Source of the DNA: a virus
Taxonomy: Duplodnaviria > Heunggongvirae > Uroviricota > Caudoviricetes
DNA: 9,215 bases
IMG/VR virus record: IMGVR_UViG_2703719355_000010
Strand: one strand, 5' to 3'
Made by a program: the position numbers and the translations under genes. This document shows, piece after piece, positions 213 through 9,215 of the stretch. Every line of letters starts with the position of its first letter. Position 1 is the first letter of the stretch. The notes below the pieces were generated by a model. That model saw only the letters and a list, made by a program, of their open reading frames with translations. It searched no databases and was not told the origin of the DNA.

Positions 213-605
213 ATGGCAAAAGTATTTACACAAGAAGAGCGGGAAGAAGTGAAGGCGCGCATTGTGGAATTCGTGCGCCTGAGCGGACGAGAAACTTTTC
301 GACAACTGGCAGATAAAACGGGTGTCAGTAAGACCGCTATTCGTCGTTTATCTGGTGCGCTTGCGGCCAGTGGTGATGTCTGGCTCTCTGGTTGCGGGGT
401 ATTTCCATCAGAGCAGGCGTATCGCGTATGGCGTAAGACACCGGAGAAGGCTGCTGACCCGACACTGATTCGAAAGTTACCTGACGGAGAAATACGTCGT
501 TACAACAGACGGCAGAACATAATTTGTCGTGAGTGCCGCCAGAGCGAAGTTATGCAGCGTGTGCTGGCGTTCTATCGGGGAAACTTTCAGGAGGTGATGT
601 TGTGA
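213..605 (+). CDS. Ren-like protein, 130 aa (N-terminal HTH-like region, C-terminal ECRQS...RVLA motif resembling lambda Ren)
   Basis: ATG at 213 preceded by GGAGG at 203-207. C-terminal IICRECRQSEVMQRVLAFYRG resembles my recollection of lambda Ren (KECRQSAAMKRVLAVYG). Stop overlaps the start of the next gene. The ORF-track start at 198 is a TTG and less likely. Confidence 0.5.
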   Translation: MAKVFTQEEREEVKARIVEFVRLSGRETFRQLADKTGVSKTAIRRLSGALAASGDVWLSGCGVFPSEQAYRVWRKTPEKAADPTLIRKLPDGEIRRYNRRQNIICRECRQSEVMQRVLAFYRGNFQEVML

Positions 606-3596: not shown

Positions 3597-3714
3597 TGCT
3601 GCGGGTGCTTGAGGCTATCTGCCTCGGGCATGCCACCGTAAGGCAGACAGAGAAAAGCCCCAGTTAACATTACGCGTCCGGCAAGACGCTTAACATTAAT
3701 CTGAGGCCATATCT

Positions 3715-3927
3715 ATGACTTGCACATGTAGGTTAGCCTCTTACGTGCCGAAAGGCAAGGAGAAGCAGGCTATGAAGCAGCAAAAGGCGATGTTAATCGC
3801 CCTGATCGTCATCTGTTTAACCGTCATAGTGACGGCACTGGTAACGAGGAAAGACCTCTGCGAGGTACGAATCCGAACCGGTCAGACGGAGGTCGCTGTC
3901 TTCGTAGACTACGAATCTGAGAAGTAA
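3715..3927 (+). CDS. mok: Mok-like reading frame: in-frame N-terminal extension of hok (70 aa)
   Basis: ATG at 3715 in frame with hok, mirroring the mokC/hokC arrangement I recall, where the mok frame governs hok translation. Confidence 0.55.
   Translation: MTCTCRLASYVPKGKEKQAMKQQKAMLIALIVICLTVIVTALVTRKDLCEVRIRTGQTEVAVFVDYESEK
3772..3927 (+). CDS. hok: Hok/Gef-family type I toxin, 51 aa
   Basis: Product MKQQKAMLIALIVICLTVIVTALVTRKDLCEVRIRTGQTEVAVFVDYESEK is near-identical in pattern to HokC/Gef as I recall it (MKQHKAMIVALIVICITAVVAALVTRKDLCEVHIRTGQTEVAVF...). RBS AAGGAG is 9 nt upstream. The predicted mRNA 5' end (3601-3614) pairs with the 3' end (3977-3991), the fold-back arrangement typical of hok mRNAs. 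Confidence 0.85.
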   Translation: MKQQKAMLIALIVICLTVIVTALVTRKDLCEVRIRTGQTEVAVFVDYESEK

Positions 3928-5086: not shown

Positions 5087-5376
5087 TGGTGGATTTACGT
5101 AAAGCGGCGCGGGGGCAGATGTGCACCGTCAGAATTCCTGGCTACTGCAATCACGATCCGGAAACGTCTGTGCTGGCGCATTACCGACTGGCGGGAACGT
5201 GCGGAACAGCGATAAAGCCACACGATATGCAGGCAGCGATTGCCTGTAGCTCGTGCCATGATTTAATCGACGGGCGGGTAAAAACCGGCGATTACACCAA
5301 AGAAGAATTACGCCTGATGCATGCAGAAGGTGTTTTTCGCACACAAGAAATCTGGAGAAAGGAGGGATATTTATGA
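5086..5376 (+). CDS. YbcO-like protein, 96 aa (DUF1364, putative metal-binding nuclease)
   Basis: Product MVDLRKAARGQMCTVRIPGYCNHDPETSVLAHYRL...IACSSCHDLIDGR closely follows the pattern of DLP12 YbcO as I recall it (LRKAARG...C.VRIPG.CN..PETSVLAH.RL...IACS.CHD.ID), including the conserved Cys/His positions. Overlapping start and stop with both neighbours. Confidence 0.75.
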   Translation: MVDLRKAARGQMCTVRIPGYCNHDPETSVLAHYRLAGTCGTAIKPHDMQAAIACSSCHDLIDGRVKTGDYTKEELRLMHAEGVFRTQEIWRKEGYL

Positions 5377-5927
5377 TTTACCCAACGAATACAGGAAAAA
5401 GCGGAGAACACCTTCGTCTCACCACGCTGGAAAGTGTCTGGATTCAGGGAAAACTACGTATGTGGGGGCGCTGGTCGTATATTGGCGGCGGTAAGACGGG
5501 AAATATGTTTAACCAGTTGCTGACCTCTAAAAAGCTAACAAAAACGGCAATTAATGAGGCGCTCCGGAGGATGAAAAAAGCAGGTCTGGACAAACCTGAA
5601 CTTGAGGCTTTTTTGCGGGATATGATCAACGGCAAGCAAAAAAGCTGGCTGGTGCATTGTACTGATGCAGAGGCGTTATGCATTGATCGGGTGATTAGTG
5701 AAGTGCTGGCAGAACACCCAGGATTGATTTGTATCCTCCGGCAAAGATATGAAGGGCGGGGGATGAGTAAGCGCAAAATGGCTGAATTGCTAAATGATGC
5801 ACACCCTGAGTGGTGTTTTCGGACGTGCTGCAGTCGGGTAGATGTATGGCTAAATCTTGCTGAATATATGCTCTATCTGCCGATGCGTGATGCATTCTCT
5901 TCCGGGTATTTAAAAACTGTCTGTTGA
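5373..5927 (+). CDS. Putative late-gene antiterminator Q (non-lambda Q family), 184 aa
   Basis: ATG at 5373 with GGAGGG 6 nt upstream. Sits in the Q position: downstream of nin-type genes and immediately upstream of a strong promoter plus short-transcript terminator. An N-terminal W-G-x-W motif resembles what I recall of Q82/QuuD-type proteins. Family not verified. Confidence 0.55.
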   Translation: MIYPTNTGKSGEHLRLTTLESVWIQGKLRMWGRWSYIGGGKTGNMFNQLLTSKKLTKTAINEALRRMKKAGLDKPELEAFLRDMINGKQKSWLVHCTDAEALCIDRVISEVLAEHPGLICILRQRYEGRGMSKRKMAELLNDAHPEWCFRTCCSRVDVWLNLAEYMLYLPMRDAFSSGYLKTVC

Positions 5928-5953
5928 CTCAATCTGTTATCCGGGGCTATATT
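5924..5953 (+). promoter_or_regulatory. Candidate late promoter (PR'-like): -35 TTGACT at 5924-5929, 18-nt spacer, -10 TATATT at 5948-5953
   Basis: Near-consensus sigma-70 hexamers overlapping the Q stop codon, followed by a hairpin at 5961-5978 (CGCCAG-CAAAAT-CTGGCG) in the initially transcribed region, as expected around a Q-utilisation/pause site. Confidence 0.5.
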
Positions 5954-6015
5954 CCTCACGCGCCAGCAAAATCTGGCGTCGGGATTAGGAACCCCGGATA
6001 GAGACCGCGACAGAC

Positions 6016-6040
6016 ACACGCCGCGAGCGTGTTTTTTATT
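6016..6040 (+). terminator. tR'-like intrinsic terminator downstream of the late promoter
   Basis: Hairpin ACACGC-CGCGA-GCGTGT followed by TTTTTATT, about 60-80 nt downstream of the predicted start site, analogous to the lambda PR'-tR' short transcript. Confidence 0.55.
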
Positions 6041-6200
6041 GTCGTATGCACGCGCACATCTGAATTATGGTGGGGCGTATGGGGGAGCTGAAAAGCTCGC
6101 CGGTTGGTTTCCCGGTAGTTCCTAACCCTGTACGTCTCACCACCCGATGATTAGGAACCTGACGGTGGTGATGGTTTAGAAACCACCAGAGGGCGTCATT

Positions 6201-7359: not shown

Positions 7360-8073
7360 ATGGCTGTTGTCTGTTCAGTTATCATGGTTTGCTCCCCAAT
7401 TAATATTTTTCTTGAAAAGGATACGTTGTCACTTAAGCCAGGCTCAGTCGTTCTGGCCACCAAATGCATCAGGGAGCTTTTCCTTATGCATTATGGCAAA
7501 GTTAAAATTGTCGATATAAGCGAATCCGTCGTAAGTCAATATCTGGAAAGTCAGCATAAGCTGACGAGGACTCGTCTGACTGACATTCCGCTTTACCTGT
7601 TGCTGGAACCCAACAATCCTGCGTTGGCTGCGGCTTTAATTACCAGCCAGGGATTTTCCGGAGAGGTCACGGATATGTTTCTTATGATGGCCTGCCTGTC
7701 TCTGTTTGAAACAGATGAACGGATGTCATTGTTTTTAAGTGGATGTTTATCCAGCATAAGTGCCAAAGTCAGGGCGATAATTCAGACAGATATATCAGCA
7801 AGCTGGACGCTTGGTGCGATTGCTCTACAGTTGCATATGAGTGAGAGTTTGTTAAAGACAAAACTGAAAAATGAAGGGGGCATGTTCAGTCGCTTGTTGC
7901 TGGAAGAGCGGATGCGTGTTGCTGTAAATATGTTATGTTCCCGACATGGATATGGACAGGCTGTAGCAGAAAAATGCGGTTATTCAAGCAGGTCCTACTT
8001 TATTTCTGTATTTCACCGCTATTATGGCTTCCCGCCAGACAGATATGTATCCAGGCAAGGGCTTGATTATTGA
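7360..8073 (+). CDS. AraC/XylS-family transcriptional regulator, 237 aa (prophage-encoded; PatE/Psr-like class)
   Basis: The C-terminal 100 aa carry the tandem HTH signature of the AraC family (...SRSYFISVFHRYYGFPPDRY). Start codon is uncertain: ATG 7360, 7387 and 7486 are all in frame and none has a strong RBS. Confidence 0.8.
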   Translation: MAVVCSVIMVCSPINIFLEKDTLSLKPGSVVLATKCIRELFLMHYGKVKIVDISESVVSQYLESQHKLTRTRLTDIPLYLLLEPNNPALAAALITSQGFSGEVTDMFLMMACLSLFETDERMSLFLSGCLSSISAKVRAIIQTDISASWTLGAIALQLHMSESLLKTKLKNEGGMFSRLLLEERMRVAVNMLCSRHGYGQAVAEKCGYSSRSYFISVFHRYYGFPPDRYVSRQGLDY

Positions 8074-8101
8074 TTTTCATCTGATTATTATTTTTTGGCT
8101 C

Positions 8102-8177
8102 GGCCCTTTAGCTCAGTGGTGAGAGCGAGCGACTCATAATCGCCAGGTCGCTGGTTCAAATCCAGCAAGGGCCACCA
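8102..8177 (+). tRNA. tRNA with anticodon CAU; sequence pattern of tRNA-Ile2 (lysidine type, ileX-like) rather than tRNA-Met
   Basis: Cloverleaf folded by hand: acceptor GGCCCTT/AAGGGCC, D-stem GCTC/GAGC, anticodon loop CTCATAA, T-loop TTCAAAT, encoded CCA. Close to my recollection of E. coli ileX. Confidence 0.8.
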
Positions 8178-8178
8178 A

Positions 8179-8255
8179 CCGCCACTAGCTCATCAGGAAA
8201 GAGCGTCAACCCTTTAAGTTGAGTGTGCGAGGTTCGAGTCCCCGGTGGCGGTCCA
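8179..8255 (+). tRNA. Atypical tRNA or tRNA-like gene; anticodon loop CCTTTAA (nominal anticodon UUU, Lys) with C instead of U at position 33 and an unusual D-loop
   Basis: 7-bp acceptor stem CCGCCAC/GTGGCGG, T-loop TTCGAGT, encoded CCA, 5-bp anticodon stem TCAAC/GTTGA. Deviations: 5' C, D-loop ATCAGGAAA, C33, one A-C mismatch in the T-stem. May be a degenerate or specialised tRNA. Confidence 0.5.
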
Positions 8256-8257
8256 GT

Positions 8258-8333
<76 letters not shown>

Positions 8334-8336
8334 TAT

Positions 8337-8411
<75 letters not shown>

Positions 8412-8417
8412 GTTAGA

Positions 8418-8463
8418 GTCTTTCAGTCTGCGATGATGGGAAATCCCGGAGTGACTGAAAGAC
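8418..8463 (+). repeat. Perfect 11-bp inverted repeat (GTCTTTCAGTC / GACTGAAAGAC) with a 24-nt loop, immediately after the tRNA array
   Basis: Read directly; no U-tract follows, so not a canonical terminator. Possible processing, structural or binding site. Confidence 0.5.
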
Positions 8464-8470
8464 GTTTAGG

Positions 8471-8543
8471 TTATGAATGATCGCTTTTTTTTGCAAAATT
8501 GCTGTGCAGAAATACTAACCTTCGGGCAGGCGATCATTCATAA
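8471..8543 (+). repeat. Perfect 14-bp inverted repeat (TTATGAATGATCGC / GCGATCATTCATAA) separated by 45 nt
   Basis: Read directly; the loop contains a T8 run. Could form a long stem-loop in RNA or be a protein-recognition or recombination site. Confidence 0.5.
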
Positions 8544-8618
8544 GCACTCTGCTTTTATTCCGATTAACTGTGGGTGGTTTGTTGGATAGAGTGCTTTCCT
8601 GACTGTAGATCCAATTTC

Positions 8619-8644
8619 GCCCGCTTTTGCGGGCTTTTCTTTTC
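8619..8644 (+). terminator. Intrinsic terminator upstream of the holin gene
   Basis: Hairpin GCCCGC-TTTT-GCGGGC followed by TTTTCTTTTC. Confidence 0.7.
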
Positions 8645-8703
8645 AAATCCCTTTCATCTCTCAGTGTAAAACTACGCCATCCGTTATTTGCGGAGGTGAG
8701 GCT

Positions 8704-8919
8704 ATGAAATCCATGGACAAAATTTCAACGGGCATTGCCTACGGCACCTCCGCAGGCAGTGCTGGCTACTGGTTTTTACAGTGGCTTGATCAAGTCAGTC
8801 CGTCACAGTGGGCTGCGATTGGTGTACTGGGGAGTCTGATTCTGGGCTTCCTGACTTATCTGACAAATCTGTACTTCAAAATCAGAGAAGACAAGCGTAA
8901 GGCTGCACGGGGAGAGTAA
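8704..8919 (+). CDS. S: Class II holin / pinholin of the phage 21 S type (S21-like), 71 aa, with dual-start motif
   Basis: Product [71 protein letters not shown] matches my recollection of S21 almost residue for residue, including the Met1/Met4 dual start (MKSM). GGAGG RBS 7 nt upstream. Confidence 0.85.
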
Positions 8920-8923
8920 TTCA

Positions 8924-9148
8924 ATGACTCAAAACTATGAAGTGATTGTGAAAGGGATCCGCAATTTTGAGAATAAAGTTACGGTAACTTTAGCGTTACG
9001 GGACAAAAAACGCTTTGACGGTGAAATTTTTGACCTGGACATCTCGCTGGACCGTGTTGAAGGTGCCGCGCTGGAGTTTTATGAGGCAGCAGCCAGAAGG
9101 AGCATCAGTGAACCGCCCCGGGTTTCCTGGAGAGTGTTTTATCTGTGA
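8924..9148 (+). pseudogene. Gene of unknown function truncated by the right-hand IS; the first 61 codons are native and the last 13 (EPPRVSWRVFYL plus stop) come from the IS end
   Basis: ATG 8924 with GGAGAG RBS. The reading frame crosses the IS boundary at 9109 and terminates inside the IS terminal repeat. The native N-terminus (MTQNYEVIVKGIRNFENKVTVTLALRDKKRF...) is not a recognisable endolysin. Confidence 0.45.
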
Positions 9149-9215
9149 ACTCAGGCTGCCAGATCATCGTTTCCGATGGAAGCATAATAAGCTTTTTCTG
9201 CTTCTGCCGGAGGAG
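9109..9215 (-). mobile_element. Right-end fragment of a second copy of the same IS3-family element in inverted orientation; the element continues to the right of the window
   Basis: Exact reverse complement of 1..107; begins at 9109 with TGAACCGCCCCGGGTTTCCTGGAGA. Confidence 0.7.
9151..9215 (-). CDS. IS3-family transposase C-terminal fragment, partial (mirror of 1..65)
   Basis: Same frame as the left copy read on the minus strand; stop codon at 9151-9153. Confidence 0.5.
   Translation of the reverse strand, partial: PPAEAEKAYYASIGNDDLAA

Follow-up and report, generated by a model that had tools for sequence, protein, structure and literature searches.

The 3' spacer of a tRNA operon can reportedly act as an RNA in its own right, the example being 3'ETS-leuZ from the operon glyW-cysT-leuZ. 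Among phages, GOLLD and ROOL are encoded non-coding RNAs supported by covariation and found 'often near tRNA islands', and GOLLD rises during lysis (PMC12286853). The put elements of HK022 and HK639 are cis-acting stem-loop RNAs of lambdoid phages, which display conserved bulges and require no phage protein (PMC9378689). Although the stretch between Q and the lysis genes in lambdoid phages has received decades of study, the tRNAs located there were described without a known promoter or processing route (PMC8022706).

The window considered here, i.e. the whole stretch of 9,215 nucleotides from a Caudoviricetes virus (IMG/VR record IMGVR_UViG_2703719355_000010), contains a tRNA array upstream of a holin gene. 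An earlier note on this DNA had located two perfect dyads between the array and the terminator preceding that gene. The features of the region are the following:

8063-8091, + strand: sigma-70 promoter of the tRNA operon (consensus scan and conservation among relatives)
8102-8411, + strand: tRNA array composed of a CAU-anticodon tRNA, Lys(UUU), Thr(UGU) and Gly(UCC) (ARAGORN, Rfam tRNA matches, RefSeq)
8412-8417, + strand: A/U-rich single-stranded linker GUUAGA (unpaired in the consensus fold)
8418-8463, + strand: hairpin 1, containing the first dyad (repeat search, consensus fold, homologue alignment)
8430-8452, + strand: kink-turn-like core of hairpin 1 (alignment of 30 distinct sequences)
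8471-8543, + strand: hairpin 2, branched, containing the second dyad (repeat search, consensus fold)
8542-8596, + strand: hairpin 3 (repeat search, consensus fold, covariance model)
8619-8645, + strand: intrinsic terminator GCCCGC-UUUU-GCGGGC followed by UUUUCUUUUC (terminator scan; -13.7 kcal/mol)
8704-8919, + strand: S21-type class II holin gene, the first lysis gene (Pfam Phage_holin_2_1, E = 1.4e-35; RefSeq)

The promoter consists of a -35 element TTGATT (8063-8068) and a -10 element TATTAT (8086-8091) separated by 17 nt, and its predicted transcription start lies a few nt 5' of the first tRNA. Both elements were kept in ~40 distinct upstream sequences from relatives (TTGCAA/TTGCAG, 17-nt spacer, TATTAT/TATCAT), as was a G+C-rich discriminator, with flanks that diverged. 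Such signals point to a conserved promoter of the stringent type, the use of which is predicted. The CAU-anticodon tRNA was assigned to Met by ARAGORN and to Ile in the RefSeq annotation of an identical genome. The linker, which joins the CCA end of tRNA-Gly to hairpin 1, was 5-7 nt long and A/U-rich in all relatives (GUUUAA, GUAAAA, GUCAGA and others), and it is a candidate RNase E cleavage site. Most relatives carried a terminator at the place equivalent to 8619-8645, after hairpin 3; in the window it closes the tRNA-trailer unit 5' of the holin gene. The promoter lies directly against the first tRNA, so that it makes up, together with the tRNAs, the hairpins and the terminator, a self-contained unit within the Q-dependent late leader; the hairpins would represent the 3' trailer of this unit. 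In phage HK639 the hairpins were retained though ARAGORN fails to recognise its tRNA-Gly. The window also carries a copy of IsrK (Rfam; 5960-6037), 2.4 kb upstream of the hairpins.

The stretch of ~290 bp in which the dyads had been said to lie without convincing ORF corresponds to the 292-nt gap 8412-8703. Stops were present in all six frames, and the sole listed ORF was a TTG-initiated one of 43 aa on the minus strand. An AUGAUG in hairpin 1 opens a frame of 15 codons; it was rejected as coding since loop-length changes shift the frame in HK639 and others. RefSeq annotates no feature in the hairpin region.

Coordinates and perfect pairing of both dyads were reproduced by a repeat search. The first displayed arms of 11 nt (8418-8428/8453-8463) with 24 nt between them and the second arms of 14 nt (8471-8484/8530-8543) with 45 nt between them, all 100% complementary. 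They follow the tRNAs, which end at 8411, and precede the terminator (8619-8634 plus T-run), as had been claimed. A third inverted repeat (8542-8550/8588-8596), missed in the earlier note, abuts the second dyad. That dyads of this length are improbable by chance was confirmed with 3000 dinucleotide-preserving shuffles of 8412-8703 (spacer 3-60 nt): a perfect inverted repeat of at least 11 bp arose in 0.3% of them, while one of at least 14 bp, or two separate ones of at least 11 bp, arose in none (0/3000 each). The fold of 8412-8645 amounted to -85.4 kcal/mol (z = -6.0), a value equalled by 0/200 shuffles. Neither dyad is followed by a U-run, which ruled both out as terminators; the characteristics of an intrinsic terminator were encountered at 8619-8645 only.

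Among relatives, 97.8% of the cells were paired, against 41-48% in slid controls. G.U cells numbered 254 and A.C cells 13; tolerance of the former and not of the latter is the signature of a + strand RNA, unlike that of a DNA palindrome, and all three hairpins folded better as + strand RNA. Changes on both sides were found at 10 pairs between lineages 76% identical, the independent events being few because most compensatory changes separate just two major clades. These alignments show that 8418-8596 specifies a predicted + strand RNA of ~180 nt conserved by selection on pairing, a three-hairpin RNA in which the two dyads form the basal stems of hairpins 1 and 2. Loops were seen to be invariant while stems co-varied.

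The earlier note had proposed a comparison of homologous prophages and had named a lack of conservation as counting against its view; the dyads proved to be conserved. As to the options it had offered, the compensatory changes and the G.U asymmetry spoke for a structure formed by + strand RNA, and promoter and terminator put this structure into the tRNA operon's 3' trailer, which would suit a tRNA 3'-processing or stabilising structure and a small RNA alike; they did not speak for a mere DNA site for recombination or protein binding, as the arms co-vary and accept G.U and not A.C. The Rfam search suggested at the same time yielded no family matching the hairpin region. Using Rfam 15 on the whole window and 8400-8710 with lax filters, no match was obtained within 8412-8608 at half the gathering score (E <= 10), the matches elsewhere being tRNAs, isrK, C4 and sok; five related loci gave no match at the hairpins either. 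Rfam includes both GOLLD and ROOL, and neither these nor Y RNA, AgvB, AsxR, Esr41 and STnc100 gave an Rfam 15 covariance-model match within 8412-8608. A full-text literature search for conserved strings returned chance matches only. The three-hairpin RNA is hitherto undescribed.

Hairpin 1 (-22.5 kcal/mol, z = -4.8) extends its 11-bp stem by G8430.U8452 and C8431-G8451, followed by an internal loop and a distal part made of U8437.G8448 and a GGG/CCC stem with a variable tetraloop (8441-8444). Its paired cells reached 95.9% vs 39-49% in slid controls (n=30 distinct homologues). In the core, the C-stem ends with the invariant C8431-G8451, preceded by G8430.U8452; then come a 3-nt bulge, which reads G8432 A8433 U8434 in the window and GAU, GAA, AAU or UAU among relatives, the tandem pairs G8435.A8450 and A8436.G8449, and a 3b.3n pair, U8437.G8448, that also varies (U.G, A.G, U.U, A-U). 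The four G,A / G,A columns were invariant in 30/30 distinct hairpin-1 sequences, including those gathered via anchors outside hairpin 1 (L133, L150, L169, L170, L171, L199); the sole departure was a degenerate copy (L154) outside the 30-sequence alignment. A Watson-Crick -1b.-1n end, a 3-nt bulge and tandem G.A/A.G opening a non-canonical helix, by which a kink-turn is recognised in sequence, were all present, so that the internal loop is kink-turn-like by signature (kink-turn definition and Kt-7 sequence: PMC5058347). One lineage (L223/L231/L243) displayed C-GAA-GA-A ... G-GA-G, identical to the core of H. marismortui Kt-7. The window has U.G at 3b.3n, a point of difference from the known motif. 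The core of the window (A-U-G-A-U-G-G ... C-G-G-A) is also one base off box C (consensus RUGAUGA) and one off box D (consensus CUGA).

Hairpin 2 (-27.4 kcal/mol, z = -4.6) has a basal stem at 8471-8486/8528-8543 that encloses two further elements: P2a, an inner hairpin of 8488-8495/8505-8512 with the loop AAAAUUGCU, and a short CC-UUCG-GG structure at 8519-8526; both-side changes affected four pairs of the basal stem and one of P2a. Hairpin 3 has A8542 and A8543 in common with it and is composed of an outer stem (8542-8551/8587-8596), a 7-nt 5' internal loop (8552-8558) and a G.U-rich inner stem (8559-8569/8576-8586) with the loop GUGGGU. The inner stem is a good RNA helix and a poor DNA palindrome. 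The covariance model of hairpin 3 scored 82 bits at 8530-8607, and 91.5% of its cells were paired vs 33-50% in slid controls (n=52 distinct homologues). Invariance of its 3' strand was partly an artefact of the search pattern and partly what is expected of a G/U-rich strand under purely structural selection; variants exist in L199, L223 and L239. An RNase III site is taken to require ~20 bp or more of coaxial double helix; helices measured 16 + 8 bp in hairpin 2 and 10 + 10 bp in hairpin 3, and hairpin 3 of L173 and L223 formed a near-perfect helix of up to ~25 bp, lengths that would suffice for a candidate site.

The element was found in 536/5426 E. coli genomes (~10% of complete genomes), and relatives were also present in phage HK639 (76% identity) and in metagenomic phages. 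Carrier strains include E. coli 042, APEC O1 and Z1323CEC0019. Genomes harbored it at a median of one place and at 5 at most, always in prophage context. Each locus had one copy, except L223 with two copies of hairpin 3, and multiple nut- or put-like copies per phage were rejected on this ground. Hairpins 2 and 3 remained where a reverse-strand ORF replaces the tRNAs. At other loci hairpin 3 occurred by itself, with neither dedicated promoter nor terminator: either it preceded the first late gene, with a pR'/tR'-like unit on its other side, or it formed part of a different operon's 5' UTR; several copies of hairpin 3 had no terminator after them. At lambdoid loci the hairpins were always oriented as the late genes, despite unrelated holins and unrelated Q families (PF06530/DUF1133 vs PF06323), and a tie to one particular Q or holin family was rejected. 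Hairpin 3 belongs to a broader family of hairpins that occupy leaders upstream of lysis genes in phages. It was absent from lambda, P22, phi80 and Sf6, which implies that nothing here is essential to late-gene expression generally; the leaders of lambda, P22 and Sf6 contain another conserved hairpin in its place. With the stand-alone hairpin 3 as query, BLAST searches of phage and E. coli collections gave no match, the query being too short or too divergent. Since hairpins occur singly, they may hold three different functions rather than one.

The suggestion that the repeats mark a mosaic joint was borne out in the compared prophages, where module breakpoints coincided with hairpin borders, always upstream of lysis genes. 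The CCA of tRNA-Gly was joined straight to hairpin 2 in L135, L138 and L144; L004 displayed hairpins 1 and 2 and then unrelated DNA; L031 and L231 had hairpin 1 followed by a different second hairpin; and L210 and L165 carried IS insertions. In related phages this locus is also where toxin genes and further accessory genes (morons) are inserted.

We favour, with a probability of roughly 40%, a cis-acting RNA module, probably protein-binding, that would serve in processing, end protection and insulation. In a lysogen, the RNA would be the 3' external trailer of the self-contained tRNA operon (promoter 8063-8091 to terminator 8619-8645). An RNase E cut in the A/U-rich linker after tRNA-Gly would free the tRNAs and leave hairpin 1 at the new 5' end, with hairpin 3 and the terminator at the 3' end, so that nucleases would be blocked. 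The structured block and the terminator would also insulate the lethal lysis genes from a tRNA promoter that is strong and constitutive. During lytic growth, the RNA would belong to the Q-antiterminated late-operon leader, and the same hairpins would mark the ends to which the lysis mRNA is processed and shield them. Invariant loops, the kink-turn above all, imply at least one specific, putative protein partner. Loci with hairpin 3 alone lack the promoter and the terminator that a trans-acting RNA gene would need, which counts for a position in cis. Against a cis-acting module, plain nuclease barriers would not need invariant loops or a kink-turn, and E. coli is not known to have an L7Ae-family kink-turn-binding protein.

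The main rival, possible though on balance unlikely, is that the trailer is itself a gene product: with the tRNAs excised, the ~230 nt from hairpin 1 to the terminator, or part of them, would build up in lysogens and act in trans on the models of 3'ETS-leuZ, GOLLD and ROOL. Such an RNA would sponge or regulate RNAs of the host, or serve one of its proteins as a decoy. The window type does own a conserved promoter and terminator, but hairpins 2 and 3 also occur without the tRNA promoter, and hairpin 3 also without terminator, directly before a coding gene. A 5' hairpin combined with a 3' terminator hairpin is typical of stable processed RNAs, and invariant loops on co-varying stems fit a trans-acting RNA as well; no seed-like single-stranded conserved stretch was evident, however. 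3'ETS-leuZ appears among the listed Hfq-associated RNAs of EPEC, and strain E2348/69 has an Hfq-associated sRNA candidate 3' of a prophage pseudo-tRNA-Gly (PP10), a like arrangement; identity with the present RNA was rejected, the sequences being unrelated. That the searchable literature lacks the conserved strings and RefSeq an annotation at the hairpins also speaks against an accumulating RNA.

More doubtful is a family of late-leader RNAs built on a genuine kink-turn, in a host with no known kink-turn-binding proteins, which would gate the lysis cassette or act in trans on the host via a putative protein. In its trans variant, expressed constitutively from the stringent-type tRNA promoter, it could be a small enterobacterial counterpart of GOLLD/ROOL.

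An effect on RNA polymerase during transcription, exerted by the RNA or by hairpin 3's non-template DNA strand, is improbable, be it put-like antitermination, enhanced termination before the lysis genes or the loading of an elongation factor, as of RfaH at ops/JUMPstart. The element sits in a terminator-rich leader and, like put, combines hairpins bearing conserved loops or bulges with co-varying stems (PMC9378689). A lysogen would however be killed by an antiterminator between a constitutive tRNA promoter and the holin gene, and the terminator that follows hairpin 3 is a conserved one; several copies of hairpin 3, as mentioned, have none after them. The put RNAs, of ~70 nt and two stems, lie just downstream of pL/pR, the early promoters, whereas three hairpins spread here over ~180 nt of late leader, after a tRNA array and before conserved terminators, where antitermination would be harmful. 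HK639, itself a put phage, carries a homologue of the present element. As to JUMPstart/ops (RF01707), its position in the 5' leader of horizontally acquired operons resembles that of hairpin 3, and the strings CCAGGGGYGGT and GGTAGnGTGC occur both in hairpin 3 of the non-E. coli class and in the JUMPstart/ops element of K-12 rfb. This local identity is real, but the predicted structure differs, and model and consensus fail: RF01707 scored 60 bits on the K-12 rfb control and gave no match (E <= 10) in the window and five hairpin-3 loci, the window reads GGATAGAGTG and not GGCGGTAGnnTG, and the outer stem carrying the ops-like string co-varies freely.

A reading at the DNA level, by which the dyads would be a recombination boundary, a protein operator or the ends of a miniature mobile element marking the tRNA/lysis joint, appears highly improbable. 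Presence and absence of hairpin 1, 2 or 3 switch exactly at hairpin borders, and that lambdoid mosaics have conserved sequences at their module boundaries is an established view; yet RNA hairpins under separate selection, each as a module, would also give breakpoints of this kind. The arms moreover co-vary, staying complementary through G.U and not A.C cells, and the inner stem of hairpin 3 suits RNA and not a DNA palindrome. With a median of one place per genome and no target-site duplication, the element is not a dispersed repeat; MITE or IS ends were rejected also because its places do not exceed 5 and its arms co-vary instead of being conserved in sequence. Chance or neutral remnants without function can be dismissed as a negligible prospect, being contradicted by the shuffle tests and by conservation, compensatory changes included, across a tenth of E. 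coli genomes and divergent phages.

Three testable objects emerge: a conserved stringent-type promoter serving the prophage tRNA operon, a structured trailer that covariation supports and that about one complete E. coli genome in ten carries, and a hairpin resembling a kink-turn in a bacterium for which no use of kink-turn-binding proteins is known. Should the RNA set lysis-gene insulation or tRNA release, it would bear on prophage stability and lysis timing, and perhaps also on the expression of toxin or moron genes inserted at this locus. A trans-acting RNA would add a new prophage member to E. coli regulatory networks. If none of these holds, the locus is a clean example of modular RNA hairpins at mosaic joints.

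Compared with known RNAs, the present one shares with lambda 6S and IsrK-type RNAs a small size, a structured nature and a location between Q and the lysis genes; IsrK belongs to a different family and starts at the late promoter, whereas the present RNA follows a tRNA array. Pas sRNAs lie beside the holin operon, mostly convergent to phage genes, whereas the present RNA runs in the same direction as the lysis genes; nowhere in the window did the four probe sequences published for PasA-D (EPEC/EHEC prophages) match with fewer than 8 substitutions. The prophage sRNAs AgvB and AsxR were rejected as unrelated in sequence, and rRNA mimicry was rejected because local alignments to 16S, 23S and 5S rRNA, the L10/L11 region among them, scored no higher than shuffles did.

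Known kink-turns display a folded kink of ~50 degrees, cross-strand A-minor contacts and L7Ae-type binding; hairpin 1, kink-turn-like by sequence, is a small stand-alone hairpin outside any riboswitch, ribosome or snoRNP. GOLLD and ROOL measure 600-800 nt, form multimeric cages and are found mainly outside enterobacteria, in contrast to ~180 nt of separable hairpins here. Another parallel is 3'ETS-leuZ, which is likewise situated between the last tRNA of its operon and an intrinsic terminator (here 8411 and 8619-8645) and is freed by tRNA 3' processing, as the present trailer would be. Release by RNase E, accumulation, Hfq binding and pairing with sRNAs characterise the 3'ETS type, of which the trailer described here is a candidate by its position. 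It is also prophage-borne and comprises ~230 nt with three elaborate hairpins, against ~50 nt for 3'ETS-leuZ, and differs further in lying within a much longer late transcript as well and in having modules that also occur without tRNAs.

Both perfect inverted repeats described in the earlier note between the tRNA array and the holin terminator were recovered by repeat search. The first (8418-8428/8453-8463) pairs 11 bp around a loop of 24 nt, the second (8471-8484/8530-8543) 14 bp around a spacer of 45 nt, and a third inverted repeat (8542-8550/8588-8596) immediately adjoined the second. As also reported there, the gap 8412-8703 held no credible ORF (ORF listing and six-frame check). Of 3000 dinucleotide-preserving shuffles of this 292-nt gap, 0.3 % contained a perfect repeat of 11 bp or longer, none contained one of 14 bp or longer, and none contained two separate ones of 11 bp or longer; chance, previously judged unlikely, is excluded as the source of the dyads. 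Read as + strand RNA, 8412-8645 folded into three hairpins followed by a terminator (-85.4 kcal/mol, z = -6.0 by comparison with shuffles). Every single hairpin lay well under its own shuffles in folding energy, and for all three the + strand gave the more stable fold (hairpin 1, -22.5 versus -18.3 kcal/mol for the minus strand; hairpin 2, -27.4 versus -22.4; hairpin 3, -20.7 versus -12.3).

Features of the window around the hairpins
5373-5927, Q-like antiterminator gene (DUF1133/Phage_antitermQ)
5947-6147, IsrK and C4-type antisense RNA module, after the Q-like gene
after this module, ORF6N gene
7360-8073, AraC-family gene, between the ORF6N gene and the tRNAs
8063-8091, + strand, sigma-70 promoter of the tRNA operon (TTGATT-17-TATTAT)
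8102-8411, four tRNAs, upstream of the hairpin region
8418-8463, hairpin 1
8471-8543, hairpin 2
8542-8596, hairpin 3
8619-8645, + strand, intrinsic terminator, 3' of the third repeat
8704-8919, S21-type holin gene, downstream of the terminator

The window belongs to an E. coli lambdoid prophage and displayed 100 % identity to strain Z1323CEC0019. Its gene order (Q, tRNAs, hairpins, holin) places the hairpins within a long Q-dependent late-operon leader, directly 5' of the lysis cassette. The module, directly after the Q-like gene and upstream of the antirepressor-like ORF6N gene, comprised IsrK (5960-6037, 69 bits), c4-a1b1 target sites (5947-6000) and a C4-type antisense RNA (6063-6147), IsrK taking the place of the lambda pR'-tR' 6S RNA; the AraC-family regulator gene is a moron within the late leader. 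A hok/sok toxin-antitoxin locus was located in the early-right region (3603-3777; Rfam sok, 110.6 bits), where the identical genome carries an annotated Hok/Gef gene. After the holin gene, the DUF1327 gene (8924-9215) is annotated as partial in that genome with an IS1203 copy directly behind it, so the prophage is probably defective for lysis.

Of 5426 complete E. coli genomes, 536 carried the 239-nt element, in every case on the chromosome, and RefSeq annotated nothing under it. Four sequenced coliphages displayed it at ~96 % identity and phage HK639 at 76 %. Pattern scans of viral and metagenomic contigs gathered ~60 distinct versions, full-length or partial; when each species was represented by one genome, only E. 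coli and Shigella flexneri had the loop pattern of hairpin 1 in its exact form. Applied to an alignment of 31 non-redundant full elements (row 1 identical to the window), RNAalifold again gave the three hairpins; in this alignment, 97.8 % of the cells (58 pairs, 31 elements) were standard pairs, against only 41-48 % when the 3' partner was slid by one to three columns as a control and 84.4 % when the alignment was read as minus strand RNA. None of 500 column shuffles matched the observed pairing or covariation score. Changes on both sides affected ten pairs (108 cells), but represented few independent compensatory events because most of them split two major clades. Distant copies (L223, L239, L231 and L243, among the related loci compared) added compensated positions in hairpin 1, for example G-C in place of A-U at 8425/8456 and U-A, U.G or C-G at 8423/8458.

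In hairpin 1, the 11-bp stem was followed by a one-base bulge (U8429), by G8430.U8452 and C8431-G8451, and by an internal loop with a 3-nt bulge (G8432, A8433, U8434) and G8435 and A8436 opposite A8450 and G8449; the distal part consisted of U8437.G8448, three G-C pairs and a variable tetraloop. In sequence, this loop agrees with how a standard kink-turn is defined, namely "a short bulge followed by G.A and A.G basepairs" (PMC5058347). The four G/A positions were invariant in 30 of 30 distinct homologues, the first scan pattern having included these bases, while the bulge (GAU, GAA, AAU or UAU) and the 3b.3n pair (U.G, A.G, U.U or A-U) varied. As a check, sequences were gathered through hairpin-3/hairpin-2 anchors: six of them (L133, L150, L169, L170, L171, L199) kept the tandem G.A/A.G and a visibly decayed copy (L154) had lost it. 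One lineage (L223, L230, L231, L234, L239, L241, L243) displayed the core C-GAA-GA-A ... G-GA-G, the same as that of Kt-7 according to its crystallised sequence GGCGAAGAUCCGGUGAGCC and description (PMC5058347).

Inside its 16-bp basal stem (8471-8486/8528-8543), hairpin 2 branched into an inner hairpin of 8 bp (8488-8495/8505-8512), whose loop AAAAUUGCU was invariant, and a small CC-UUCG-GG element. Changes on both sides were seen at four pairs of the basal stem and at one of the inner hairpin. In hairpin 3, a co-varying outer stem led through an internal loop on the 5' side to an inner stem rich in G.U pairs, which was capped by a GUGGGU loop; its covariance model (52 distinct copies) matched exactly once in nearly every locus. 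Hairpin 3 also occurred alone in phages of unrelated background: immediately after a pR'-like promoter and tR'-like terminator, ahead of the first late gene (L129, L132, L172); upstream of terminator and holin (L168, L160); or, within a divergent intergenic region, in the 5' UTR belonging to a different operon (L157, L173, L175). Loci with hairpin 3 encoded Q proteins from unrelated families and different holins, and it is therefore tied to leader position, not to one Q or holin. It was not found in lambda, P22, phi80 and Sf6.

Several further observations concerned leader hairpins. The late leader of the metagenomic phage L223 carried two hairpin-3 copies 1.5 kb apart (1879-1949 and 336-411, minus strand), the first a near-perfect ~25-bp hairpin, and L132 displayed a weak isrK-like match directly 5' of hairpin 3. 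In the non-E. coli class (L132, L161, L168, L172, L180, L223), hairpin 3 had CCAGGGGYGGT and GGTAGnGTGC in common with the JUMPstart/ops element that lies in the rfb leader of K-12 (L248 238-276); the Rfam JUMPstart model gave no match on hairpin 3. A short hairpin, CACCGGGAGGCACCCGGCACC, recurred in the late leaders of HK639 (L001 ~3885-3910), L180 and L241. Lambda (L181:1527-1560), P22 (L182:38088-38125) and Sf6 (L250:3300-3345) shared a different co-varying hairpin (GGGTGGCAGGAGGT-CGCGCTAACA-ACCTCCTGCC) ~130 nt 5' of the holin gene, so conserved leader hairpins upstream of lysis genes may be general.

The hairpins were combined in various ways. Hairpin 1 was cleanly missing in six loci, with hairpin 2 directly 3' of tRNA-Gly (L135, L138, L140, L144, L145, L155), and in six others a reverse-strand ORF replaced the tRNAs upstream of hairpins 2 and 3 (L127, L137, L142, L151, L158, L176). 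Hairpins 1 and 2 were followed by unrelated DNA in L004 and L050, and hairpin 1 by another long hairpin in L031, L230, L231, L241 and L243, the last two without upstream tRNA. IS insertions lay at hairpin borders in L165 and L210. In the distant phage L223, whose Q belongs to another family, the tRNA was still followed by hairpins 1, 2 and 3 in this order. Because arrangements change at hairpin borders, the mosaic joint proposed earlier describes the region correctly; the hairpins themselves, however, are conserved RNA modules rather than mere junction scars. The comparison shows a conserved structure of the + strand RNA, where it lies and how modular it is.

Upstream of the first tRNA, ~40 distinct sequences from relatives displayed TTGCAA/TTGCAG, a 17-nt spacer, TATTAT/TATCAT and a G+C-rich (stringent-type) discriminator ending at the tRNA's 5' end. 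The sequence between and around these signals was divergent, and a terminator frequently lay just upstream. The stretch from the conserved promoter through tRNAs and hairpins to the terminator is thus a moron-like unit inside the late leader, with the hairpins as its 3' external trailer; the literature leaves undecided whether late-leader tRNAs have their own promoter or are excised from late mRNA (PMC8022706). The arrays of the window, L006, L108, L135, L138, L140 and L144 kept a CAU-anticodon tRNA, Thr(UGU) and Gly(UCC), and their second tRNA was swapped (Lys, Phe, Leu, Arg or pseudo-tRNA), which might reflect anticodon-nuclease pressure or codon supply. The tRNA-Gly of HK639 (L001 3430-3507) was no longer detected by ARAGORN; its diverged 5' half beside a 3' half identical to that of the window points to a recombination joint, or to gene conversion, within this gene.

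In a lysogen, transcription would proceed from the tRNA promoter through to the terminator, and late-promoter read-through under Q would also transcribe the hairpins. The preferred reading (probability about 0.4) is that the hairpins act in cis, as a module for processing, end protection and insulation. RNase E would cut the short A/U-rich linker after the CCA end and free the tRNAs; in E. coli tRNA operons, it releases tRNAs at A/U-rich sites of this kind. The 5' end made by this cut would be capped by hairpin 1 and the 3' end by hairpin 3 with the terminator, and the structured, terminated block would shield the holin gene from a strong constitutive promoter. The same hairpins would set the processed ends of the late transcript; hairpins 2 and 3 are long enough for candidate RNase III substrates. 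The invariant loops and the predicted kink-turn are the weakest point of a pure nuclease-barrier model and, judged from sequence, argue for recognition of the RNA by at least one protein.

The main rival, somewhat less probable, is that the trailer itself is a stable trans-acting RNA: the unit has its own promoter and terminator, and it resembles both 3'ETS-leuZ and the RNAs GOLLD and ROOL, which lie close to tRNA islands of phages (PMC12286853), but some hairpin copies lack a promoter or a terminator. Control directed at the polymerase (put-like, termination-enhancing or ops-like) is improbable, as antitermination at this spot would be lethal in a lysogen and the hairpins lack the defining features of put (PMC9378689) and JUMPstart. 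A DNA-level role of the dyads is very improbable given the asymmetry between G.U (254) and A.C (13) cells in the aligned pairs.

The Rfam search proposed in the earlier note returned no Rfam 15 family for the hairpin region, and conserved strings of the element were not found in the searchable literature. Identity with the sRNAs Pas, AgvB and AsxR was rejected, their sequences being unrelated. In prophage PP10 of E2348/69 (L183 2558-2866), a published Hfq-associated sRNA candidate lies 3' of a pseudogenic tRNA-Gly and is closed by a terminator ahead of a phage gene; the arrangement is that of the window element whereas the sequence is unrelated. A real conserved RNA in a classic system is well supported, its function being inferential. 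The kinds that the element resembles, namely tRNA trailers, phage leader RNAs and kink-turns, are known; this particular element of three hairpins appears to be undescribed so far, as do its kink-turn-like hairpin and the leader family of hairpin 3.
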